64,000 bases of DNA, taken from the NCBI GenBank assembly GCA_035550555.1, contig DASZPA010000135.1:1621-65620 (forward strand). The letters run 5' to 3'. Under the pieces are notes generated by a model. The model ran no database searches, had not been told where the DNA came from, and was given only the letters and a program-made list of their open reading frames with translations. Origin of the DNA: Fimbriimonas sp. (GTDB lineage Bacteria; Armatimonadota; Fimbriimonadia; Fimbriimonadales; Fimbriimonadaceae). The position numbers and the translations under genes are program-made. Positions 3,855 through 44,675 of this stretch are shown here, one piece after another (positions within the stretch are counted from its first letter, which is position 1; every line of letters begins with the position of its first letter).

Positions 3855-4733
3855 ATGACTTACAGGCTCGGTAGGGACTCAACTGGATTCACGCTGATTG
3901 AAGTGTTGGTGGTCATGGCCATCATCAGCGTGGTCGCGGCCATTTTATTCCCGGTTTTCGCATTGGCCCGGAACGCCGCGAACAAGGCTACGTGCCTCAA
4001 CAACTTGGGGCAGCTTACGCTGGCCTACCAGCTCTACAGCAACGATTACGAGGACACTCTCTGCGCGCCGGTGTACCTGTCCAACCTCGTCGCCTATCCC
4101 TGGCACGCGTGGTTCGGAGAATTGGACTCGTCGACTGCGACGCTCGATCCCAGCCGCGCCCTGCTCTCTCCCTACCTGCGAAACACGGCAGTCTTCAACT
4201 GTCCGAACATCGATACCATCCCGAATCCTCTCAGCGCAGATTTGAGCTATGGAATCAATGACCAGCTGTGCATCACAACGGTCAATCTCCAGAATCTCAA
4301 CGTTTCGTTTCAGCCCGTGACGGGTTCCCAAGTTCAAGCTCCGTCGGAAACCGTCCTTTTTGGAGACGCGGCGCAAAATGAGCCCGGCTCCCGAATTGAC
4401 AAACGAGCCATTCTACAGTTCAACGCTCACTTTGCCGGCACCTCGAGAGGATTCCTGCACGCCCGCCATGGCGGAGCGGTGGCGAATGTCTCTTGGCTGG
4501 ATGGCCATGTGAAATCGATGCACCTGTCTTACAACACTCGCAACGATGGCGCCCAATACTCCGCTGCATGGGAGGAACGGGAGGGCATTGGGGACCTGCT
4601 CAAGTTTCCGCGCCAATACGCCAAACCCACCGGCGCCGCCCCCTCCCTTCAGGACATGTACTACTATCTGACCGACAAGTCCGTCGATCCAACGGGAAGC
4701 CTCAACACGCTAACTCAATGGCTGCTGCTGTAG
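3855..4733 (+). CDS. prepilin-type N-terminal cleavage/methylation domain protein (DUF1559 / H-X9-DG-like)
   Basis: 292 aa. Class-III signal '[29 protein letters not shown]'. C-terminal 'HGGAVANVSWLDGHVKSM'. Confidence 0.85.
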   Translation: MTYRLGRDSTGFTLIEVLVVMAIISVVAAILFPVFALARNAANKATCLNNLGQLTLAYQLYSNDYEDTLCAPVYLSNLVAYPWHAWFGELDSSTATLDPSRALLSPYLRNTAVFNCPNIDTIPNPLSADLSYGINDQLCITTVNLQNLNVSFQPVTGSQVQAPSETVLFGDAAQNEPGSRIDKRAILQFNAHFAGTSRGFLHARHGGAVANVSWLDGHVKSMHLSYNTRNDGAQYSAAWEEREGIGDLLKFPRQYAKPTGAAPSLQDMYYYLTDKSVDPTGSLNTLTQWLLL

Positions 4734-4803
4734 AGGCTGGCAAGTTCGCCCCTTCGCAGCCTCAGATAGATCCTGTAGATACACCGGAACGTTAGGTCTG
4801 TAC

Positions 4804-5637
4804 TCAGTCGTTCCAACGTGTTCCGGCATGGAGCGATTGAAAGTGGAGTGGAGTCATTCCCTCGGACCGCTTGAAGATGCGGCGGAAGTAGTTGCTGTCC
4901 AGAAACCCGCACTCATGCGCGACCTCATCGATGGAAAGCTCCCGCATCGTCAGCAGGTGCCTCGCCCGTTGGATTCGTCGCCGATGAATCGCTTCCACGA
5001 TGCTGATCCCATAGGTACTTCGGTAGATCCGTCCAAGGTAGTCGGGACTACAGCCGATACGGGTCGCAATGCCGGAGGTGCTGAGCTCCTTCTGGAAGCA
5101 GCTTCGAATGATCGCGTCGGCCTGGCTGGCCATCAGCGCCGTGGCCTCCGTCTCGACTCCAGCCGGAGGCTCATAAGCGACTTCGCAAAGGGCTAAGAGC
5201 AATGCGAGGTCGGCAGCCTTCCCCTCGGAAGCCTTCGATTCGTTGTAATCGAGTAAGCGGTGGAGCAACTCGACCATGTGATCCGGCCGAGCGACGGTTT
5301 TGTGCTGCGGTACATGCGCCAATAGGCCGTCTTCTTGGATACCTGGCTGATCGTCGATCGAGAAGTAGACCCAATAGTATGACAGGTCGTGGCTGTTCGG
5401 TTGCCATCCCTTGTGGTGCCGGTTTGGAAACAGCAGCAGCGACTGATAGGGACCGACCGAGAACCGGCGATTCTCCTCTGAGATGAAAAGCGAGCCTTTT
5501 CGCACGTAGATAAGCTCGCAAACATCAAGGCATCGGCCCGGGTATTTGCCGTCTTTGTGAGGCGTAAACTCGCCGGCCCTAATGCAATGAATGGGCAACT
5601 TTGCCGAAAGGCTCAAGCAGACGTCAGATTCGGCCAT
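4804..5637 (-). CDS. AraC/XylS family transcriptional regulator
   Basis: 277 aa. N-terminal cupin-like sensing half. C-terminal double HTH 'IATRIGCSPDYLGRIYRSTYG ... VAHECGFLDSNYFRRIFKRSEGMTPLHF'. Confidence 0.85.
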   Translation of the reverse strand: MAESDVCLSLSAKLPIHCIRAGEFTPHKDGKYPGRCLDVCELIYVRKGSLFISEENRRFSVGPYQSLLLFPNRHHKGWQPNSHDLSYYWVYFSIDDQPGIQEDGLLAHVPQHKTVARPDHMVELLHRLLDYNESKASEGKAADLALLLALCEVAYEPPAGVETEATALMASQADAIIRSCFQKELSTSGIATRIGCSPDYLGRIYRSTYGISIVEAIHRRRIQRARHLLTMRELSIDEVAHECGFLDSNYFRRIFKRSEGMTPLHFQSLHAGTRWND

Positions 5638-5797
5638 ATAGTCGGATTTGTGCTGATAATGTCGGTAATCGTCCTTTGATTTTCTCGACTGAGCGCACTA
5701 CTATGTACGTGATACCTGTATCTTTGCTTTTTGCCACTGACTGAGTTGAAATGACAAGCCTACCTACTAGTAGCGGATTACATAAGGATAACTATTC

Positions 5798-6598
5798 ATG
5801 GCACATAGCAATTCTATTCGTGTTAATGCCTTAAAAGCATTTACCCTAATTGAGCTCTTAGTTGTCATCGCGATTATCGCGATCTTGGCGGCAATTCTAT
5901 TTCCAGTATTCGCCCAGGCAAAGGCGGCGGCCAAAACAACGGCAACGCTGTCCAACATGAAACAGCTTGGACTCGCTCTACAGATGTATACGAACGATTC
6001 GGACGATGTGGTGCCCTTATATGAGCCCACGCAGGCCGGAGGCGACAACGTCTTTCTGATCCAGCGACTCTATCCGTACGTCAAGAACCTGGACATCTTC
6101 TGGGATGCTGCGACGGGCGAGCCGGACCTGAACCCCAGAACGATGCAGCCGACGTCGGCTACCGACCAAGGCTGGGGCGATTGGACGCTCTACGAGAACC
6201 TGAGCTTCAACGGCGATGGACTCGGCGGCTATTGGAATTTTGGCGGCACGACCGTCTACGACTACGGGCGTGTGCTGACCAGCCAACAGAACCTGGCACA
6301 GCGGGCAGCGTTCATGACCACCACCTGGCCCGGCACGGGCGATCCGTGGGGCTATTACCAGTTCCTGAACTGGGTTGCGGTACAGCCCGACTACGCGGAC
6401 CTCACCGACTTCTGGGCCGACCAGTGCTGGAACGCGCGAGGGCGGCACCGCGATCGCTGGGTTGTCTCTTACGCGGATGGCCACGCGGGCACGGTGGCTG
6501 CGACCTCCAAGGTCGTGCCGCCAGGAGGAGACTACTGGACGGTCTACGCCGGCAACACGCTCGCCTTCTGGGGCTCCTACTGGGATCCGACCCTTTAA
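5798..6598 (+). CDS. prepilin-type N-terminal cleavage/methylation domain protein (H-X9-DG)
   Basis: 266 aa. '[29 protein letters not shown]'. '[13 protein letters not shown]' fits H-X9-DG exactly. Confidence 0.85.
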
Positions 6599-6601
6599 GA
6601 A

Positions 6602-6796
6602 ATGGGTAAGGAGCTTTCGCCAAAGCTCGTGGGGGCCGTCATCGCCTTGGTGGTGGTCCTCGTTCTTGCCATCGGATGGGTGCTCACAAGCGGGGGATCC
6701 GGCTCGCATGGAAACCCAAACGTCAAACCCGCTTCTCCGCCGCCCCCTCGGCACGGCCCCCCGCCGCCCCCAGCCGGCGGATTTCCAAGAGGCTAA
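6602..6796 (+). CDS. small single-pass membrane protein with proline-rich tail (hypothetical)
   Basis: 64 aa. The ATG lies 3 nt after the stop of 5798..6598. TM 'LVGAVIALVVVLVLAIGWVL' is followed by 'PPPPRHGPPPPPAGG'. Coding status unproven. Confidence 0.45.
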   Translation: MGKELSPKLVGAVIALVVVLVLAIGWVLTSGGSGSHGNPNVKPASPPPPRHGPPPPPAGGFPRG

Positions 6797-7063: not shown

Positions 7064-7939
7064 CTATGCCCGAAGCATCAGTACCGGATAGGGTTCGAAG
7101 CCGACCTGATGAAGGCCCACGCTTCCGATTCGGCGGCCGGAGCCTTCGGTGGAGCTTCCGACCGAGCCGATGATCAGCAGGTCCGCGGCACGCATGTGCG
7201 CTTCAATCGCGGCGTTCGGCTCGCCCTCGACCACAGCGGACGTCACGTTGAATCCCGCCTCTTTCAATCGGGCGGAGACGATGGCGGTGCGCTTCTCGAA
7301 CTCATCTTCGAGCCACCTGGAAGCGTCGCCGCCGAGCATGGGCAGATTGAGCCGGGTCGCCTTGGCAATATCGTCGTCGATCTCATAGGCGGAAAGGAGG
7401 TGCAGAGAGTCGATGCCCTGTGGTTTCAGCTCGATGAGCTTATCGACCACTCGATCGGTATGGGCCGAATGGTCGACCGCGAAGACTGCCGTGAAGGTTT
7501 TCTTCCGCTTTCCGCCATGATCGCCCTTTGCGACCAAGAGAGACGAGGTCGCACCGAGGGCCAGTGCACTCGTTGCGCTGTCCAGATAGGTCTTCGAGGA
7601 TTTGCCGCAGTGCGTCGCACCGATCGCGATGAGATCGGGCTGTTCGGCTTTCTCTTCTTGGATCATGCAATCCGCTGCTCGGCCAAAGACCATCTTCGTC
7701 CTTGCTCGAAGGCCCTTGCCGCAGGCTTCATCGGCGGCGCGGTCGAGGGCGCTCAGGCCGAGATTCTGGACGACTTTGGAGAACTCGGCCTCCGTATGGG
7801 GGTCTGTGGGCCCGAGAGGGTAGTTCAGATCGACCGCGTGGAGAAGGGTGACGACCGGCTTGTTGAATTTGAGGGCGGCAAGTAGGTCGAGGGCCGGAAG
7901 GTAGGCGCCATGGGTATCGATTCCGACGAGTGCTTTCAT
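7064..7939 (-). CDS. universal stress protein, tandem UspA domains
   Basis: 291 aa with two Usp halves. '[10 protein letters not shown]' and '[10 protein letters not shown]...GSVGLHQV' form ATP-binding-type glycine motifs. AGGAGAAG lies upstream of the ATG. Confidence 0.85.
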
Positions 7940-9434: not shown

Positions 9435-10319
9435 ATGCGAATACTGATTCCCGTCGACAACACCGACCGCCACCGAGCCGTTTTTGATTGCTTGTTGAGC
9501 ATGAAGTTCTCGGATCCCGAGATCAAGCTTCTCAACGTCGTTGCCCCTCTGCCGGCGGTCGACTCAGCGTATCAGGCCATCGCGTCGATCGATACGCAAG
9601 CCATGATCGACGCCTTGCGGGAAGGCGGGCAAGCCGCCTTGGACGTCGCATCGGACGACGCGCAAGGGAAGGGCCTCGCCACGACCACGCTTTTGGCTTA
9701 CGGCTATCCCTCTTCAACCATCGCGGAGACCGCAAACTCGTCGGTTACGGACCTGATCGCGTTTGGCGCCGCGCCAAAAGGAAAGATGGGCAGGTTCTTC
9801 GCCGGAAGCGTCACGCATAACCTGGCAAGCGCCGCCGACCAGAGCCTCTTGGTCGTCCGGACCTCCTACCATGCAAAGGACAAGGTTTCAGCCGTGTTCG
9901 CCACCGACCATTCGGATTACGCGAACCGGTGCCTGGAGAAGCTCTTGGCCTGGAAGCCCGCGGGGCTGGCGCACGTCCAAGTCTTAACCGCCTACGAGTC
10001 GTACGGCTATGAGCTTATTCAGGCCGGAAACACGGAGGTTGTGACGGCGGACGAAGTGGATCGCCTTGTAAAGAACCGCCTCTGCGAGAAGAGCGAGGCC
10101 GTGGCAAATCGATTCCGAGAAGCAGGGATCTTGGCAGATGTGTCCCTAGTCAATACCGATATACGTTCGGCGATCGCGGCGACCATGGCTATGACGGGGG
10201 CCGATCTTCTGATTTTGGGCGCCAAGGGCCACAGCATGTGGGAGCGCATGATGATCGGAAGCACGGCAGTCCACGAACTTTCGGCAGAGCCCTATTCGAT
10301 TCTGGTCATTCGAGCATAG
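9435..10319 (+). CDS. universal stress protein, tandem UspA domains
   Basis: '[11 protein letters not shown]' is a typical Usp start. AGGAGA lies at 9425-9430. The second half ends '[10 protein letters not shown]...GSTAVHEL'. The ORF extension back to 9357 was rejected. Confidence 0.85.
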
Positions 10320-39199: not shown

Positions 39200-41647
39200 C
39201 TACAGTTGCCTCAGGATCACCCGGTCGGTGATCTTGTCGTCGTTTGCCAACATCAAAGCTTTGCTAAGGATGATCGCAAGGACCCCATCGCCTTCGAACG
39301 GCAGGTACACGCGGTTGTTGGACCGGTCCTTGTTGCCGCCGGGCACGATGCAGAGGTACTGGTCGTTCGGCTCCATCAGAATGTTTCCGCTTCCTAAATG
39401 GATCTTGTAGGTGCGCCGATGGCCCTTTACGATGAGGAACTTGCCTTCGATCCGAGAAACGCTTCCAAACGCCAGACGGGGAAGCAGACGCTCCAGAACC
39501 GCTTTGCGCGTCTCGGCCGTCGCCGACAGGTCCCCAAAGGACGCTTTCCCCCAGTAGCCGCCCCATCGATCCCGGTTTCCGTGGTCTCCCCATGCAGGAT
39601 CGTTACCCACGCTTGAGACTCCAACGAACAGGTCGACGTCGCGAAGGACCTCCGAGAACAAGATCGCGGGCAGGGATTCCAACTCGACCGGGTGACCTGT
39701 CATGCGATCGTTAAAACGAACCTGATCGGTCGCCACGTAAATGGCGATACCCGCATCAGAGGTTCCCTCGTCGGTTGCCGACGCCACATCGGCAACTTCG
39801 ACGAAATACTCTGCTTCCAGACCCCAACTCGGGAGGTCGAGAGTTGGGTGGTTCGTATTGTCAAAGGAGGGCCCTTGCAGCGCATAACGCCAGCCGCGAG
39901 CCCTGGCCAGCGCCGCGAACTGATGCTGCTTGAGGATGTGCGCTGCAAAACGGTTGGTATAGGTGTTGGTGCGCAGCTCTGCATCGGTCAGGATGTAGAT
40001 CTCTCGGTAAGCCTGCTTGAAAGGTTGGCGTATCTCACGGGCGACCAGGAAATCGCGCCAAGCTTCGATCACGGAGACGACTGCACGGATGGGATGCCAC
40101 AACTGAACGTTCGTCTCGTCTGCCAACCCTGGCACTGGTTCGCCTCGAAAGTCGATCGGCTCACCATCCGGCGCGATGCCGAGGTGCTCACCGCCCGGAC
40201 TCGAAAACTCCCAGATGAGCCGGCGCGACATGTCGGCTAACAGCGGATGGTCCAGATACCGCTCACGCCAGGCAGAGTACGGAAGACGACGAGCCGAGAG
40301 CATCAGGCCTTCGATCCGGGCACGCTGGGCAGCCAGCATGGTCTCCATCTCTTTGGCCGTTGCCTTGAGCTGCTTTAACTCAGCGGCATGCTCCTGCTTC
40401 ACTTCGGCAGGTGGCGCTTTGAGCTCCTTGCCTTCCCGAAACCACCGCAACTCTGCGTCCGTCGTATTGGAGATTTCAATACGAACATCGACGGACCCAA
40501 GGGTCTCGGTAAGGACACCCGGAAGCTCGAGGCCGAAGGTCGGCACGACCAGTTCCTCCAGGTCCTCTATAGGCAAAGACATTTTCTCGGCCGCACGAGT
40601 CAGCGACGCCGTGACCAGTGCTGATAGGCTTGGACTCTTGACACGGTTTCGGGTAGCGGATATCTGCGCGACGGCATCGAAAGTTCGCATCGCTTCGAGT
40701 GCCCCTATGGCTCCGCCGAACCCCTTTTGCGATCTTGCCCCGAAGCCGGAGATCTTATGACCACTGGCAATCGCCAGCCTTCCCAACAGGGCTGCGGCTC
40801 TGGACGTTCCTATCGTCCCGGCAAACCAGGCGAAGCCACGAAGCATATCGGCGTGGAGGGCATCGACCGTTACTGCCATTTGGGAGACCTTCGCGACAGA
40901 CTCTTCGAAGGTATCCAGATACTTCTCCGTTCCAAACTCAGCCAAGAGCGCCTTAGCGGTCTTCGCCCATCTGTCCGACATTTGGTTGGAGGTCGCCGTA
41001 ACCGCATGCTTCACCAACGGCAGATACACATCTCCGCGGAACGGCTCCTGCCATGGCTCCGGCATCTCGATCTTGGAGGCGTTTGCTGGGTCGAGCAGCG
41101 CCTTAAAACGCATGATCACCTTTCGGTCTGCCGCGCTGAGTCCCCACGGGTTTCTATTCTCGATATCCTTGATGAGCCCACGGAGAATCTGCTCCGTGTC
41201 GGCAGTCATCCCCTGGTCGAGTGCCAGACTTTCGGCCATTCCGGCAAAGCGGCCGAAGTCTGTTCCGAAGTGCTTCCACGCCTCAATGACGATTGGGAGC
41301 TGCTCATGCGAGAGCGCTCCCTGCGTGGTGAGCAGCCGGCCCGCCACTCTTTTGAGCTCGTCGATCGCCATGTAGCCTTCGCCAAAGAGCATGCTGCCGG
41401 TCTTCCCGCGCGCGCGCCTCAAAAGAGCCAAGCCCATGAGACCGCGGTCACGCCCAGTGAAATCGGTGACCGCCTTGCAGAGAGCCGGATTGAGGCGTTC
41501 GGTCTCCTTTGAGACGGAACTTCGGCGCCAAGCGTCCCCCTTCAGAACTTCCAAGACCGCGTTGGCAAACTCATCCGCCACTCTGTCGAATTCGCTGGTA
41601 GAAGCCTCCTGGGCGTCCTGCTTCCTCTTGAAAAACGGCAGCTTCAC
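39200..41647 (-). CDS. DUF4132 domain-containing protein (MolR/YehI-like), helical N-terminal half
   Basis: 815 aa with a GTG start. The C-terminal half ('LWHPIR...FKQAYREIYILTDAE...NRFAAHILKQHQFAALARARGWRY...KIHLGSGNILMEPNDQYLCIVP') matches my recollection of the DUF4132 core. Only 2 Cys in the whole protein. Confidence 0.75.
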   Translation of the reverse strand: MKLPFFKRKQDAQEASTSEFDRVADEFANAVLEVLKGDAWRRSSVSKETERLNPALCKAVTDFTGRDRGLMGLALLRRARGKTGSMLFGEGYMAIDELKRVAGRLLTTQGALSHEQLPIVIEAWKHFGTDFGRFAGMAESLALDQGMTADTEQILRGLIKDIENRNPWGLSAADRKVIMRFKALLDPANASKIEMPEPWQEPFRGDVYLPLVKHAVTATSNQMSDRWAKTAKALLAEFGTEKYLDTFEESVAKVSQMAVTVDALHADMLRGFAWFAGTIGTSRAAALLGRLAIASGHKISGFGARSQKGFGGAIGALEAMRTFDAVAQISATRNRVKSPSLSALVTASLTRAAEKMSLPIEDLEELVVPTFGLELPGVLTETLGSVDVRIEISNTTDAELRWFREGKELKAPPAEVKQEHAAELKQLKATAKEMETMLAAQRARIEGLMLSARRLPYSAWRERYLDHPLLADMSRRLIWEFSSPGGEHLGIAPDGEPIDFRGEPVPGLADETNVQLWHPIRAVVSVIEAWRDFLVAREIRQPFKQAYREIYILTDAELRTNTYTNRFAAHILKQHQFAALARARGWRYALQGPSFDNTNHPTLDLPSWGLEAEYFVEVADVASATDEGTSDAGIAIYVATDQVRFNDRMTGHPVELESLPAILFSEVLRDVDLFVGVSSVGNDPAWGDHGNRDRWGGYWGKASFGDLSATAETRKAVLERLLPRLAFGSVSRIEGKFLIVKGHRRTYKIHLGSGNILMEPNDQYLCIVPGGNKDRSNNRVYLPFEGDGVLAIILSKALMLANDDKITDRVILRQL

Positions 41648-41650
41648 GAC

Positions 41651-42043
41651 CTATCCACCGACGAGCGGCACCAGCCTTAAGAAGCTAACCTCGTCGCCAT
41701 CGTTGAGTTGGATCCTTTCCTCCAACTCCATGGCCTGCCTGTCTGGAAGCAATACGACGAACCGCTGCTTCTTGAACGCTTCGAGAGCTACTTCCACTTG
41801 ACGGTCGGCATCGATCGGACGGAACCGCCTGACGGCAGGGCCATTGATCAAGCTCTCCATATCGGAAGGTTGAACAAGTCCATAGAATCTCGGCTGTCGT
41901 TCGTTGTTGTAGCGCCGAACCTCGGCGCGTACTCGCAACGAGATCAAATCGCGCAACGTGAGGCTTTCCGACTCGAGATCGAGAGGAGGAGCTTCGAACT
42001 TGCTTCCGCCGGTAGTTTCATCGATCAGTCGGATAGTGGTCAT
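41651..42043 (-). CDS. beta-grasp ubiquitin-like (ThiS/MoaD-like) protein ending in Gly-Gly
   Basis: 130 aa. The C-terminus 'RFVVLLPDRQAMELEERIQLNDGDEVSFLRLVPLVGG' is followed directly by TAG. The downstream GTG is 3 nt away. Confidence 0.6.
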   Translation of the reverse strand: MTTIRLIDETTGGSKFEAPPLDLESESLTLRDLISLRVRAEVRRYNNERQPRFYGLVQPSDMESLINGPAVRRFRPIDADRQVEVALEAFKKQRFVVLLPDRQAMELEERIQLNDGDEVSFLRLVPLVGG

Positions 42044-42124
42044 GCGGCCTCAAGGAAGTTTACAGTCGGTTTCTAGTTCAATGGATAGTCTTTTGGGCAT
42101 GTGAGTCTTTCAAAAGACGCGTTC

Positions 42125-42168
42125 ATGGATGACAATAAGTTCGTGATCTTGCCGCTCATCCTATTTTG
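42125..42168 (+). pseudogene. 5' fragment of a small membrane-protein gene split by the IS insertion
   Basis: ATG 42125 encodes MDDNKFVILPLILF... up to the target-site duplication. It continues in frame at 44720. Confidence 0.6.
42161..42168. repeat. target-site duplication CTATTTTG (left copy)
   Basis: Identical to 44720-44727. It directly abuts the left inverted repeat. Confidence 0.8.
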
Positions 42169-42190
42169 GGCAATAACATACTTCGTGCAC
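42169..42190. repeat. left terminal inverted repeat GGCAATAACATACTTCGTGCAC
   Basis: The reverse complement of 44698-44719 is GGCAATAATATACTTCGTGCAC, identical at 21 of 22 positions. Confidence 0.85.
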
Positions 42191-42200
42191 ACTCCCGAAT

Positions 42201-42716
42201 TCAGATTGGGAGAGGTTGCTGTGCTATGACCTGCATCGGCGTGACGATTTCAACACCGAATTCTCGCAGGATTACAGACGAAAGACCGATCATGCTGAAC
42301 TCAGCCCCAGATATTCCATCGGTCGTTACAAGGCAGTCGCATTTATAGATGCTTGCCGTGGCTATATGGATGCAATCCGGCAGGTCCAAGAATTGGAATA
42401 CGTTCGGCTTGTCTGGATGCCTACGTCGTGTTTTCTTGCGAATCGTTCGTGCGAGGCTCATTATCGGCCCCGATCCGTCTATTAGTTCTCCCTTGATGCC
42501 ATCCAGAACCTTGTCGATCAGATCGAAAGAATTATCTAACAATTCGGCCATCAAAACGGTGCCACTAACAGCGTACATGCGCTCGGCCTCGATTTCCGAG
42601 AACAGATTGTCTATGCTTTCCAGAACGGTATCTGAGACATCACGTTTTTGGCGTGCTATGAACAAGCACGCATCAAGATAAACCTTTTTCTGTGTTGGAG
42701 CCTTTTTGCGGCTCAA
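42201..42716 (-). CDS. PIN-domain nuclease (IS passenger)
   Basis: 171 aa. Acidic PIN residues lie in 'VYLDACLFI', 'LMAELLD' and 'CDCLVTTD'. TTG 42716 is preceded by GAGG (7-nt spacer) and overlaps the upstream TGA (TTGA). Confidence 0.78.
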   Translation of the reverse strand: MSRKKAPTQKKVYLDACLFIARQKRDVSDTVLESIDNLFSEIEAERMYAVSGTVLMAELLDNSFDLIDKVLDGIKGELIDGSGPIMSLARTIRKKTRRRHPDKPNVFQFLDLPDCIHIATASIYKCDCLVTTDGISGAEFSMIGLSSVILREFGVEIVTPMQVIAQQPLPI

Positions 42717-43585
42717 CCGACCGCCTCACTTATCAGGAGTCGTTCGTCCTCTTCTGATGAATCCCAAAGCTGAGATAGGTTATCGACTAGTTTTAGCCAC
42801 GCGCCTTCAGGTGCTGCCTCGCGTATCTCCACCGATTCTGCGTTCATACGAATCGGCCAAGGAGCATCGCCCACGAACTCCTTTAGACCTGTAACGGTCA
42901 CGACATGCCGTATACCCTTCTGGACACTCGGAAAGACTGACTCATCAAATAGGCAACGAACCTTAACTGGCCCTATCTTTGGATAGACCGTAAAGTTCCA
43001 CGGCTTCGAATGAACGTTGATTCCTTCAAGAATCCCTGTTATGGAACCTCTTGATCGATGTACGGGGCCAAGTTTCTTGTTGATTTCGTCGGCTATGCGA
43101 GAATCAATCACCATCTCAGCCTTGGAGGTTGTAATGTGAGCAACATCGTTTTTGAGTTGCTTTGCAAAGTCTCCAAGTGACAGCCATGTATTCGGGTCGA
43201 AGGATTTAGGAGTTTTTGGCTGGCTAACCGCACTAAACACCTTTTCGAGGTTTCGTATTGGCTGAGAAGAACCGCGAATAATGGCCTTTCGAGGTTTTAC
43301 ACCAGGAATCTTTACAGGGGCCTCGTTGACGCTTACAACGCGTAAAACGGCCTCAAGGGGGCTGTTCTTCTCAAGCGATAAGACCTGTACCCTTGCAATT
43401 CTCGGATCAGCCGAAAACTCGACTAGGAGCCGCATCATAGCGTTCAGTTGTCGCAACACATCGGGAGCCAGGTCAATGCCTAGAGTCGAACCCGATTCAA
43501 TTCGAATGCTAACTTCTTCCGTGTGTGGCACTTCGGATAGTCCTAATGGCGCTGGCGTTTCTGATCGGCCTGAGACTCTTTCCAA
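42713..43585 (-). CDS. hypothetical protein, IS passenger (no recognisable domain)
   Basis: 290-aa ORF. An alternative GTG at 43531, preceded by AGGA (9-nt spacer), gives 272 aa. It is co-oriented and coupled with the PIN gene. Confidence 0.6.
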   Translation of the reverse strand: MERVSGRSETPAPLGLSEVPHTEEVSIRIESGSTLGIDLAPDVLRQLNAMMRLLVEFSADPRIARVQVLSLEKNSPLEAVLRVVSVNEAPVKIPGVKPRKAIIRGSSQPIRNLEKVFSAVSQPKTPKSFDPNTWLSLGDFAKQLKNDVAHITTSKAEMVIDSRIADEINKKLGPVHRSRGSITGILEGINVHSKPWNFTVYPKIGPVKVRCLFDESVFPSVQKGIRHVVTVTGLKEFVGDAPWPIRMNAESVEIREAAPEGAWLKLVDNLSQLWDSSEEDERLLISEAVG

Positions 43586-43728
43586 ACGCTTTCGCGCCTG
43601 TCGAGTTCCGACTTCGGAACCCCTAGAGCTTTCCTCAATCCAGCATCCAGATTCACCATGTCGGGGCGCGCCTCGAATGCCGCGTCTCTGGCGCTTGATC
43701 CAGGATCGCTCTTCTTTCGTTTCCTCAT
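43543..43728 (-). CDS. small basic ORF, possibly DNA-binding (ribbon-helix-helix-like start 'MVNLDAGLRKALG'), IS passenger
   Basis: 61 aa. ATG 43728 overlaps the transposase TGA (ATGA). It overlaps the long form of the next ORF by 43 nt. Coding status uncertain. Confidence 0.35.
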   Translation of the reverse strand: MRKRKKSDPGSSARDAAFEARPDMVNLDAGLRKALGVPKSELDRRESVWKESQADQKRQRH

Positions 43729-44675
43729 GCTGGCTGTTGTTGAGAGACGTTGCCAGTGAGCGCCGCGTAGGTCACTCGCTTACCCTTCGCACCCGCTACC
43801 GCGAGTTCAAAACGGTCGGCATCGGTCCCCTTGCGCTCATTGTAACGGAAAGCCTGTTCGTCCAGGTAGCGGAACAGGTGAAACGGTTCAATAGAAACAT
43901 AGGTTCCGTTGATCGTCCTCTTTAGGAGACTCCAGAAGTTCTCCAATCCGTTCGTGTGAATCTGTCCTTCCACGTAACTCGTGGCGTGGTCGATGACTCC
44001 GTGCTGGAATGTCTGATCCAGCCCATCGTAGGATCGAAGCGCATCGGAGTAAAGATTGCACCCGTGAAGAACGTTTTCCTTGATGATCTTGTGAAGCTGC
44101 TTTTTGGTCGGTCGCTCAATGTGCTGTAGCTTGACGTTGCCGCCACGCTCTAGCATTCCGAACACGACCGCCTTGTCCTTTCCGCCCGTGCCCGTGATCT
44201 TTCGCTCCTTGACCTCTTTGTGCATGTTGCGGGCTTTGCCGCCGATGTACGTCTCATCGACTTCGACAGCATCAGCCAGCTTCTCAAACGATCCGTTCTG
44301 AAGGGCTAGCCGAATTCGGTGGAGCATGAACCACGCGGTTTTCTGTGTGACGCCTAGACCGCGATGTAATTCATAGCTGCTGATCCCGTTTTTGGCGTTG
44401 GTAATCAGCCACATGGCCGGGAGCCACTTACTGAACGGGATATGGGAAGCCTCGAAAACGGTCCCGGTCTTGGCACTGAACTGCTCACCGCAGTCGTTGC
44501 AACGGAACCGCAAGCGGCTCTCGATTAGATGAATCTTGCCCGACTCGCTGCAGTGCGGGCAAACAACGCCTTTGGGCCATCGTCGGCTGACGAAGTAGCT
44601 CCAAGCTACGCGCTCATCTTCGAAGTAGCGAATGACTTCGAGAAGCGTTTCCGGTGTTGGCAGTGCGGCGTTCAC
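43725..44675 (-). CDS. IS1595 family (ISXO2-like) transposase
   Basis: 316 aa. N-terminal zinc ribbon 'CPHCSESGKIHLIESRLRFRCNDCGEQF', HTH 'ISSYELHRGLGVTQKTAWFMLHRIR', and DDE region 'VEVDETYIGG...LYSDALRSY...HTNGLENFWSLLKR'. GTG start. Confidence 0.92.
   Translation of the reverse strand: MNAALPTPETLLEVIRYFEDERVAWSYFVSRRWPKGVVCPHCSESGKIHLIESRLRFRCNDCGEQFSAKTGTVFEASHIPFSKWLPAMWLITNAKNGISSYELHRGLGVTQKTAWFMLHRIRLALQNGSFEKLADAVEVDETYIGGKARNMHKEVKERKITGTGGKDKAVVFGMLERGGNVKLQHIERPTKKQLHKIIKENVLHGCNLYSDALRSYDGLDQTFQHGVIDHATSYVEGQIHTNGLENFWSLLKRTINGTYVSIEPFHLFRYLDEQAFRYNERKGTDADRFELAVAGAKGKRVTYAALTGNVSQQQPA

Follow-up and report, generated by a model that had tools for sequence, protein, structure and literature searches.

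A Gly-Gly-terminated ubiquitin-like protein and its DUF4132-DUF7737 partner: a two-gene bacterial cassette with a possible role in the DNA-damage response

The locus considered here raises the question of what a small protein with a free C-terminal Gly-Gly (GG) might do when it is encoded immediately upstream of a large DUF4132 protein. It is situated in a stretch of 64,000 nucleotides (nt) from a metagenome-assembled genome (MAG) of Fimbriimonas sp. (Armatimonadota; assembly GCA_035550555.1, contig DASZPA010000135.1, positions 1,621 to 65,620 of the forward strand), which is referred to as the window and to which all coordinates relate; the features of the locus itself lie on the minus strand (-). 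An original prediction, made from the letters of this stretch, had interpreted the open reading frame (ORF) of 130 amino acids (aa) at 41651..42043 as a ubiquitin-like (Ubl) protein that is linked to an 815-aa DUF4132 protein. The computational follow-up leads us to propose, tentatively, that both genes constitute a self-contained cassette, representing a new bacterial Ubl system that would operate in the response to DNA damage and oxidative stress.

The small gene (41651..42043(-), ATG start) encodes HWD38634.1, which is annotated as 'hypothetical protein'. Its product terminates in IQLNDGDEVSFLRLVPLVGG (within the longer stretch RIQLNDGDEVSFLRLVPLVGG), the last residues being LVPLVGG, and the codons GGT GGA of the two final glycines (41654..41659(-)) are directly followed by the TAG stop codon at 41651-41653, as originally read. 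A spacer of merely 3 nt (GTC, 41648..41650(-)) lies between this stop codon and the GTG with which the partner gene begins (39200..41647(-), HWD38633.1); this distance, likewise given correctly before, suggests translational coupling of the two genes.

In a model computed by AlphaFold2 from the family alignment, the 130-aa protein adopts a beta-grasp fold, with a predicted local distance difference test (pLDDT) score of 81 and a predicted template modelling (TM) score, pTM, of 0.76. The modelled topology comprises a beta-beta-alpha unit, an insert of 30 residues, an alpha-beta-beta-beta unit and a flexible tail, and the insert is highly conserved, yet poorly predicted. When the model was compared to the PDB by Foldseek, 46 of the 50 top matches were ubiquitin, SUMO, NEDD8, ISG15, Urm1 (including mouse Urm1), MoaD/MOCS2A and other chains with Ubl domains, with probabilities of up to 0.99, target-normalised TM scores of up to 0.64 and weak E-values of about 1e-2; the best TM score belongs to human MOCS2A, a homologue of MoaD. 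On the strength of this model, the small protein appears to be a real Ubl beta-grasp protein with a free GG, and the originally claimed Ubl identity withstood the fold comparison. Searches of Pfam, NCBIfam, PADLOC and PDB sequences with the 130-aa protein yielded zero matches (at E<=1 to 10 for Pfam, NCBIfam and PDB), and hhalign against E. coli MoaD returned a non-significant probability of 10.7% covering only the last 23 columns. Since the protein belongs to no ThiS/MoaD model and the hhalign result is insignificant, it is treated as a member of a new beta-grasp Ubl family outside ThiS/MoaD.

This family is large. A word-indexed search retrieved 331 homologues, nearly all of 125-135 aa, and an exhaustive hidden Markov model (HMM) search of 1.84 billion cluster representatives (50% identity clusters) assigned at least 2,472 clusters to it at E<=1e-3, of which 1,386 reach E<=1e-10. 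When one genome was scanned for each species, the family was detected in at least 580 species, and its members derive from Actinomycetota, Bacteroidota, Armatimonadota, Deinococcota, Cyanobacteria and Verrucomicrobiota as well as Planctomycetota, Acidobacteriota, Gemmatimonadota and Pseudomonadota. Judged by sequence conservation, the 130-aa ORF is to be regarded as a genuine gene rather than a chance ORF. In an alignment of 30 sequences from different phyla 22 positions are invariant, among them P126, L127, G129 and G130 as well as the motif GLxQP..E..NG (aa 55-68), which belongs to the insert. Moreover, all of the 120 listed homologues end in PL[V/I/M]GG with zero extension, GG is terminal in 146 of 148 further cluster representatives, and the match to the family HMM reaches the last residue in every case. 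The terminal GG emphasized by the original prediction is thus retained by orthologues, whereas the acidic DGDEV turn, which had been named as a hallmark alongside it, turned out to be lineage-specific and not part of the family consensus, whose tail reads LxxGxxVSFLRLVPLVGG. Three candidate gene fusions, one protein of 969 aa and two extended proteins, were discarded as frameshift read-throughs.

Besides the protein itself, its association with the partner gene is conserved: a DUF4132-DUF7737 gene adjoins the Ubl gene in 86 of 88 loci that were collected via the Ubl. Among 80 genome loci, the partner gene is located immediately downstream of the Ubl gene in 74 (4 of them cut by a contig end and 2 truncated) and immediately upstream on the same strand in 2, is missing from 1 (L069), and is undecidable in 3 where the contig stops too early. 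In 11 extra loci (L001, L004, L005, L007, L089, L090, L095 and L096 from metagenomes and genomes as well as L097, L098 and L099 from large plasmids or chromids) the pair is present in 10, the exception being L090 from the completely sequenced F. ginsengisoli. Conversely, sampling of DUF4132-DUF7737 genes revealed an upstream Ubl ending in PL[V/A]GG in 4 of 4 diverse cases. Altogether, the pair is found across at least eight phyla, and in most related loci the stop codon of the first gene overlaps the start codon of the second or lies 1-4 nt away from it, so that the adjacency of Ubl and DUF4132 genes was not refuted as a general feature. The two GG proteins devoid of a DUF4132 gene within 8 kb, in F. 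ginsengisoli (CP007139.1, 8001-8393) and in the Microscillaceae MAG of locus L069, may have their partner elsewhere in the genome or may be orphans. Tandem DUF4132-DUF7737 duplicates that share one Ubl occur in L032 (1136-4405 and 4637-7264), L091 (1553-6436) and L056 (57-3703), and in L032 a 1,089-aa DUF6493/DUF7824/DUF7825 protein is encoded just upstream.

The remaining neighbours are not shared. In the window, the TAG of the partner gene abuts the ATG of a 375-aa ORF without spacer, followed by a 137-aa ORF, and Pfam identifies these as GFO_IDH_MocA and Cupin_2, respectively, in accordance with the oxidoreductase and cupin named originally. Neither gene resides beside the cassette in any relative, close Fimbriimonadia included, and since they are not conserved at this position they are considered local neighbours rather than parts of the module; of the linkage first proposed, only the Ubl-DUF4132 pair therefore persists. 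All-against-all clustering of neighbouring genes disclosed nothing else conserved beyond synteny at the Streptomyces level. In some contigs DNA-repair genes occur near the cassette, namely RecX in L091 and LigA together with AidB in L093.

The 815-aa partner combines a helical repeat, a DUF4132 domain, a middle alpha/beta region and a DUF7737 domain, as derived from Pfam and an AlphaFold2 model (pLDDT 85) featuring a helical-repeat N-terminal half and a mixed alpha/beta C-terminal half. The repeat (aa 19-366; 40550..41593(-)) is delimited by the secondary structure of the model, and Foldseek comparison of the full-length model with PDB and BFVD produced HEAT/ARM-type matches for the N-terminal half only. 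DUF4132 (PF13569) extends over aa 406-586 (39890..40432(-); E=1e-50, 172 bits against a gathering cut-off of 27) and harbours the invariant WHP (517-519) and QPxKQAxRExY (541-551) motifs. In the middle region (aa 587-710; 39518..39889(-)), residues T640, D641, E666, R669, D670, D672, D683, P684 and W686 are invariant, and in DUF7737 (aa 711-815; 39203..39517(-); E=1e-38, 132 bits) this applies to H750 (39398-39400), G752, S753, C766 (39350-39352), D787 and K796. The C-terminal half as a whole displays a mean column identity of 52% across phyla and invariant, enzyme-like motifs such as WHP, QPxKQAxRExY..T..E..T..YSNR, TDQ.RF, SE..RD.DLF.(G/S)V.S.(G/A)(N/L)DP.W, Y(K/R)(I/V)H(L/I)GS, YLCIV, LPFEGD and SK(A/V). 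Two loops rich in invariant residues (aa 684-703 and 770-786) are modelled at low confidence, as would be expected for segments that become ordered upon binding, and DUF7737 is a candidate for a catalytic or Ubl-binding module.

The original prediction had labelled this protein as MolR/YehI-type, which is appropriate inasmuch as the DUF4132 domain is common to both. E. coli YehI, however, carries DUF4132 at aa 954-1138 of 1,210 and possesses neither a middle region nor DUF7737 nor an adjacent GG protein, while the window partner lacks a WGR domain; hence, the Ubl-linked proteins represent a distinct architecture. YehK was considered as a hidden Ubl of E. coli and was rejected, as it ends in ...NQEIE instead of GG and has no Pfam match. 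The single-strand E. coli K-12 cluster concerned (L088; 2,196,474-2,210,944) consists of yehF (WGR), the pseudogene yehH, yehI (DUF4132), yehK, yehL (MoxR AAA+), yehM (DUF5682), yehP (VWA) and yehQ (SWIM), and it encodes no Ubl.

The strongest clue to the function of the cassette, which had escaped the original prediction, is its connection to DNA-damage regulons. It is most tangible in Deinococcus radiodurans, where a paralogous branch of the family, termed type 2, is present, as opposed to the window protein, which belongs to the type-1 branch with invariant GG. Type-2 proteins of approximately 134-157 aa end in ...L(A/S)G plus 1-3 variable residues and are invariably encoded ahead of a giant protein (about 1,600 aa) of DUF5724/HEAT/DUF4132/DUF7737 architecture; they are homologous to type 1 (E=2e-12) and to DR_A0165, and in two loci they neighbour a type-1 pair (L089, 11936-12355; plasmid pFA1 of Fulvitalea, L099, 5153-5626(-)). 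The DR_A0165 peptide SEP068184, which ends in ...LRLTALAGG, matches the Ubl profile with 41 bits (E=7e-15), and by sequence it is placed in the type-2 branch of this multi-phylum family. The DUF4132 protein DRA0166 (1,626 aa) starts at the base following the stop codon of the 134-aa DRA0165. For drA0165-drA0166, the radiation/desiccation response motif (RDRM) TTATGTAAATAGCATAA, a DdrO peak in chromatin immunoprecipitation sequencing (ChIP-seq) and derepression upon DdrO depletion were reported, and mitomycin C induces DRA0166 provided that IrrE is present, and not otherwise (PMC8533742). The level of the DR_A0165 protein rises after exposure to gamma rays and H2O2, and the same work independently predicted it to be MoaD-like while describing it as a thioredoxin-binding small-ORF peptide that is specific for Deinococcus and devoid of an RDRM (PMC9650054). 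On the latter point the two studies are in conflict. The published work on the D. radiodurans member recognised it neither as part of a Ubl family nor as one half of a conserved cassette, and the logic of its GG likewise escaped notice.

Candidate sites of further regulators were detected in other phyla. The binding consensus of the actinobacterial activator PafBC is tGTCgg(N10)tA(N3)T, in which TAnnnT constitutes the -10 element (PMC8635444). An exact TGTC[AG]G-N10-TAnnnT motif is positioned at the Ubl start in 37 of 41 actinobacterial loci, and only 3 of its 40 matches in the 643 kb of these loci (both strands) lie away from the Ubl gene, one of them at the start of a second DUF4132 paralogue. 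The immediate proximity to the start codon implies a leaderless transcript, and the sequence that flanks the motif is not conserved between genera. A canonical actinobacterial LexA box, TCGAAC-N4-GTTCGA, is absent upstream of the Ubl. In Meiothermus, the sole TTATG-N7-CATAA sequence in 16 kb, a site of the DdrO type with an expected number of 0.04, occurs 20 nt upstream of the Ubl. In Bacteroidetes, the LexA-like box is CTAA-N5-TTAG, as verified by electrophoretic mobility shift assay (PMC8565304); of 27 Bacteroidota loci, 4, each of them from Hymenobacter, have it no more than 50 nt from the start of the Ubl, and these 4 instances, out of 17 in 374 kb, fall within the 1.4% that is Ubl-upstream sequence. 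The cassette thus carries the damage-response sites of three regulators, namely PafBC, DdrO and the Bacteroidetes LexA-like repressor, the sites outside D. radiodurans being predicted, and this independent convergence on three different damage regulators suggests that it is useful after genotoxic stress.

Several related observations were made on upstream regions. A perfect motif of the PafBC type precedes the Ubl gene in approximately 30 Streptomyces species (loci L013-L087), and in L050 such a motif (at about 6739) accompanies a second DUF4132 paralogue without Ubl (4683-6761(-)). In the non-actinobacterial loci L032 (about 7905-7930) and L007 (about 9885-9915), the sequences TTGTCACTG and CTGTCACTG, respectively, each followed by a TA-rich element resembling a -10 box, are present upstream of the Ubl; they resemble the -26 element of PafBC sites and might point to a WYL-type activator outside Actinobacteria. 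Regulation by LexA has been cited for E. coli molR, and CTGGATAAAATTACAG, which departs from the consensus of the LexA box by one mismatch, is located 10 nt upstream of yehF. In the window, the upstream intergenic region (42044..42200(-)), the presumed promoter, contains the inverted repeat GTCTTTTG-N15-CAAAAGAC (42088-42095 and 42111-42118) enclosing the palindrome GTCTTT-TG-AAAGAC; this element, at a distance of 45-75 nt from the Ubl start codon, is a possible operator not shared by the relatives examined. Scanning the window operon for sigma-70 promoters and terminators was uninformative.

A gene for a candidate activating enzyme (E1) is linked to the cassette in a minority of genomes. Direct linkage to a gene of the ThiF family (PF00899, E from 1e-63 to 1e-68, with a GxGxxG motif) was observed in 7 of about 97 loci, which belong to two phyla. 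In three Fimbriimonadia relatives (L008, L089, L096) this gene is divergently oriented just upstream of the Ubl gene. In Pedobacter sp. Leaf176 (L021) and in a MAG from Bacteroidota (L086) it overlaps the stop codon of the DUF4132 gene, which it follows directly in a Chryseobacterium MAG (L060), and in a Saprospiraceae MAG (L056) it comes after the Ubl. In an eighth locus (L094) the distance amounts to 3.8 kb. The best NCBIfam models for these proteins are ThiF, MoeB and UbaA, and all scores remain below the equivalog cut-offs (for example 205 versus 275 and 202-220 versus 266), so that by this test they are not housekeeping enzymes. Beyond that, nothing further in common was found around the linked E1 genes. 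By a rough estimate, chance adjacency would affect far less than 1% of loci for a family with few copies per genome, and the occurrence in 7 of about 97 loci, in three arrangements and two phyla, thus argues for a real association of E1 and cassette, which provides the Ubl system with an E1 context.

The type of E1 also invokes a sulfur carrier, which would be thiocarboxylated by the MoeB/ThiF-type enzyme and a housekeeping sulfur donor and would never form a conjugate, with the partner acting like MoaE or ThiG as a synthase that inserts sulfur into a small molecule, a nucleotide or a nucleic acid after damage. The linked E1s are indeed single-domain enzymes with ThiF and MoeB as best NCBIfam matches, linked genes for an E2 or a deconjugating peptidase are missing, the tail ...V(S/T)F(L/V)(R/K)L.PLVGG resembles that of MoaD over 23 columns, MOCS2A gave the best target-normalised TM score, and the 1:1 pairing with a large enzyme-like partner recalls MoaD-MoaE. 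Nevertheless, neither a rhodanese nor a cysteine desulfurase nor a biosynthetic gene is linked in the approximately 97 loci, the partner is unlike any known sulfur-insertion enzyme and the C-terminal residues of type-2 paralogues are variable; moreover, we know of no sulfur-containing product that is tied to DNA-damage regulons. On balance, a sulfur carrier is considered unlikely, albeit to be reckoned with.

Far less credible still, to the point of near-dismissal, is an ordinary MoaD or ThiS serving molybdopterin or thiamin synthesis next to a 'molybdate metabolism regulator'. This notion derives from the name MolR, given to the E. coli DUF4132 protein after a genetic study of 1990, and from the MoaD-like fold of the small protein. 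It is contradicted by the missing ThiS/MoaD matches in Pfam and NCBIfam and the tail-only hhalign result against MoaD, by the architecture of YehI/MolR, which has neither DUF7737 nor a GG partner, and by D. radiodurans, which possesses separate MoaD and MoaE proteins (PMC9650054) and whose moe genes are unresponsive alongside the operon. In addition, no moa, moe or thi gene exists in any cassette neighbourhood read, which upholds the original statement that the Ubl does not reside in a classical sulfur-carrier context.

The cassette as a new Ubl system for damage and oxidative stress is the reading built on the fold, the conserved GG, the near-obligate pairing, the linkage of E1 genes and the damage-regulon sites. 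In such a system, the free GG carboxylate of the MoaD/Urm1/ubiquitin-fold protein would constitute the reactive group, which would be adenylated by a single-domain MoeB/ThiF-type E1, encoded by the third gene of the operon in some genomes and elsewhere in others, presumably including the organism of the window. The HEAT/DUF4132/DUF7737 protein would serve as an effector peculiar to this system, either accepting the activated Ubl or making use of it, with His750, Cys766 and acidic residues as putative active or docking site. The outcome might be protein modification independent of E2 and E3, of the kind performed by Urm1, SAMPs and TtuB and directed by or onto the partner, a prospect to which we assign a nearly even chance. 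More doubtful is a damage-inducible Ubl conjugation pathway of many phyla, in which the E1-adenylated Ubl would be passed to the DUF4132-DUF7737/HEAT protein as a combined E2/E3, so that repair, replication or damaged proteins would be marked and the type-2 Ubl would be a capped precursor (Gly-X).

A number of observations weigh against the proposal of an E1-driven damage-response system. The 64-kb window is devoid of ThiF-like genes, as assessed by tblastn and an HMM built from the ThiF genes linked in relatives and as already noted in the original prediction with regard to ThiF/MoeB-type E1s; the E1 that occupies the equivalent position in other Fimbriimonadia may have been displaced from this locus by insertion or rearrangement. 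In about 90% of the loci no E1 is encoded within 8 kb, and the loci examined lack any linked gene for an E2, a JAB/JAMM peptidase or a rhodanese. The partner did not match any PDB sequence, nor did its C-terminal 445 aa in a PDB profile search; sensitive Pfam scans of 25 family members yielded zero recurrent weak matches and no model covering the middle region, and long family members revealed no informative additional domains. With no PDB or Pfam relative of the C-terminal half, no chemistry can be assigned to it. An E2-like nature of DUF7737, conceived from a helix, beta-meander and helices arrangement and from His750...Cys766 as a counterpart of HPN...Cys, is retained as speculation only, the hhalign probability against UBE2D2 being 0.5%. 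The knockout in D. radiodurans shows a mild phenotype, with higher resistance to H2O2 and little change towards gamma and UV radiation (PMC9650054). The mycobacterial PafBC motif is apparently not conserved in Streptomyces venezuelae according to a paper on that organism, so that PafBC control in Streptomyces is deduced from motif conservation. Finally, the upstream region in the window contains no recognised damage-response operator and the five Fimbriimonadia loci including the window have no common upstream motif.

The tails of the type-2 proteins add to these objections. Among 60 type-2 homologues, the penultimate Gly is invariant except in two with extended C-termini, while the final position is occupied variably, by G, A, R, L, Q, W, Y, M or I, and one example ends with three extra residues (LAG-STY). 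Capped precursors are known for Ubls such as Atg8, Ufm1 and polyubiquitin, and likeness to these would imply processing of type-2 proteins; either such a capped precursor is processed, or a terminal GG is not needed and the tail only fits a pocket. The second option leads to the small protein as a non-covalent subunit, a beta-grasp adaptor or chaperone whose GG would plug into a pocket of the partner without being adenylated. Translational coupling and near-obligate adjacency would suit a stoichiometric complex, conservation of the entire Ubl including the invariant insert would suit extensive protein-protein contacts, and both the freedom of the last type-2 residue and the scarcity of nearby E1 genes fit well. 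On the contrary, no fusion of the small protein to its partner exists among the 2,472 clusters, the free-end GG is invariant in type 1, and the ThiF-family genes linked in 7 loci of two phyla would have no role. A purely non-covalent subunit is hence regarded as rather improbable.

The surroundings of the cassette in the window call for a further consideration. Directly upstream of the Ubl gene, an ORF of 171 aa that matches PIN weakly (42201-42716(-)) overlaps by 4 nt with a 290-aa ORF without family (42713-43585(-)), and an IS1595-family transposase gene (43725-44675(-)) is located upstream of this pair. A position beside a transposase and a PIN-like two-gene module would befit an anti-phage or other conflict system of the Bil, Bub or CBASS Ubl type, in which damage control would sense prophage induction or infection. 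Flanking genes elsewhere are compatible with this, as SMI1/KNR4, DUF4241 and DUF1963 occur on a Hymenobacter contig and an AbiEii toxin in Pedobacter, and paralogues and tandem duplications are common. However, no component is matched by any PADLOC model, E2 and JAB are lacking, 50,697 phage records contain no match to either protein, and the plasmid-record matches are limited to 4, all on non-mobilizable large replicons. Moreover, synteny is kept across about 30 Streptomyces species, which suggests vertical inheritance. A conflict system is consequently deemed quite improbable.

In eukaryotes, the modification of proteins by Ubls holds a central place in the response to DNA damage, and in bacteria, to our knowledge, modification of the Ubl type is known only from pupylation and from recent anti-phage systems. 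Taken together, the findings disclose a large GG-terminated Ubl family that has so far been annotated as 'hypothetical protein' only, provide a concrete biochemical context for DUF4132 and DUF7737 and allow the 'small peptide' published for D. radiodurans to be reread as a Ubl protein. Tractable models for a putative Ubl chemistry in bacterial DNA repair are available in D. radiodurans, in Streptomyces and in Pedobacter sp. Leaf176 with its three-gene operon. If conjugation with the partner as E2/E3 were to hold true, the cassette would be the functional counterpart, in bacteria, of the ubiquitin/SUMO signalling that damage induces. A full-text search of the literature retrieved no paper on a Ubl-DUF4132 pairing, as the original prediction had supposed, and no mention of DUF7737.

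Among known systems, MoaD-MoeB and ThiS-ThiF share with the cassette the small beta-grasp protein with free GG, the hydrophobic strand preceding the tail as in MoaD, the single-domain MoeB/ThiF-type E1, linked in some genomes, and a tight pairing like that of MoaD and MoaE. In contrast to MoaD and ThiS, the cassette Ubl comprises 130 aa with a conserved insert of 30 residues and lies outside the Pfam and NCBIfam models, its HEAT/DUF4132/DUF7737 partner is neither MoaE nor ThiG, and damage-regulon sites take the place of nearby cofactor genes. Urm1, the SAMPs (with UbaA) and Thermus TtuB-TtuC are sulfur carriers as well as modifiers that require only an E1; they resemble the cassette in combining a GG beta-grasp protein with a MoeB-like E1 in the absence of E2, E3 and an obligatory peptidase. 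Conjugation of Urm1 and SAMPs increases under oxidative stress, and this link is paralleled by the D. radiodurans member, which is induced by H2O2 and gamma rays. On the other hand, the cassette has no linked Ncs6/TtuA, features a new, near-obligate partner and is bacterial and distributed over many phyla, and its conjugation is putative.

The bacterial Ubls of Bil, Bub and CBASS with Cap2/Cap3 likewise possess a C-terminal Gly that is activated by an E1, as would be the case in the cassette, while they own an E2 or a fused E1-E2 as well as a JAB or other peptidase and reside in defence islands, all of which is alien to the cassette, as is any PADLOC match. E. coli MolR/YehI (WGR and DUF4132) agrees with the partner in its DUF4132 and departs from it by the extreme C-terminal position of this domain and by linkage to MoxR, VWA and SWIM genes. 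Pup-PafA resembles the cassette as a bacterial modifier system of the actinobacterial damage response, and PafBC apparently drives the actinobacterial cassette too; Pup itself, on the contrary, is disordered, ends in GGQ or GGE and is attached via the side chain of this Glu by a ligase that resembles glutamine synthetase, involving neither a beta-grasp fold nor an E1. Akin to the cassette are DR_A0165 and DR_A0166, with a homologous small protein abutting a DUF4132 protein under experimentally established DdrO/IrrE control, which differ by the type-2 tail (...LTALAGG) and the 1,626-aa partner. In its kind, the cassette would conform to the prokaryotic E1/Ubl systems, with a partner and a physiological context that are new.

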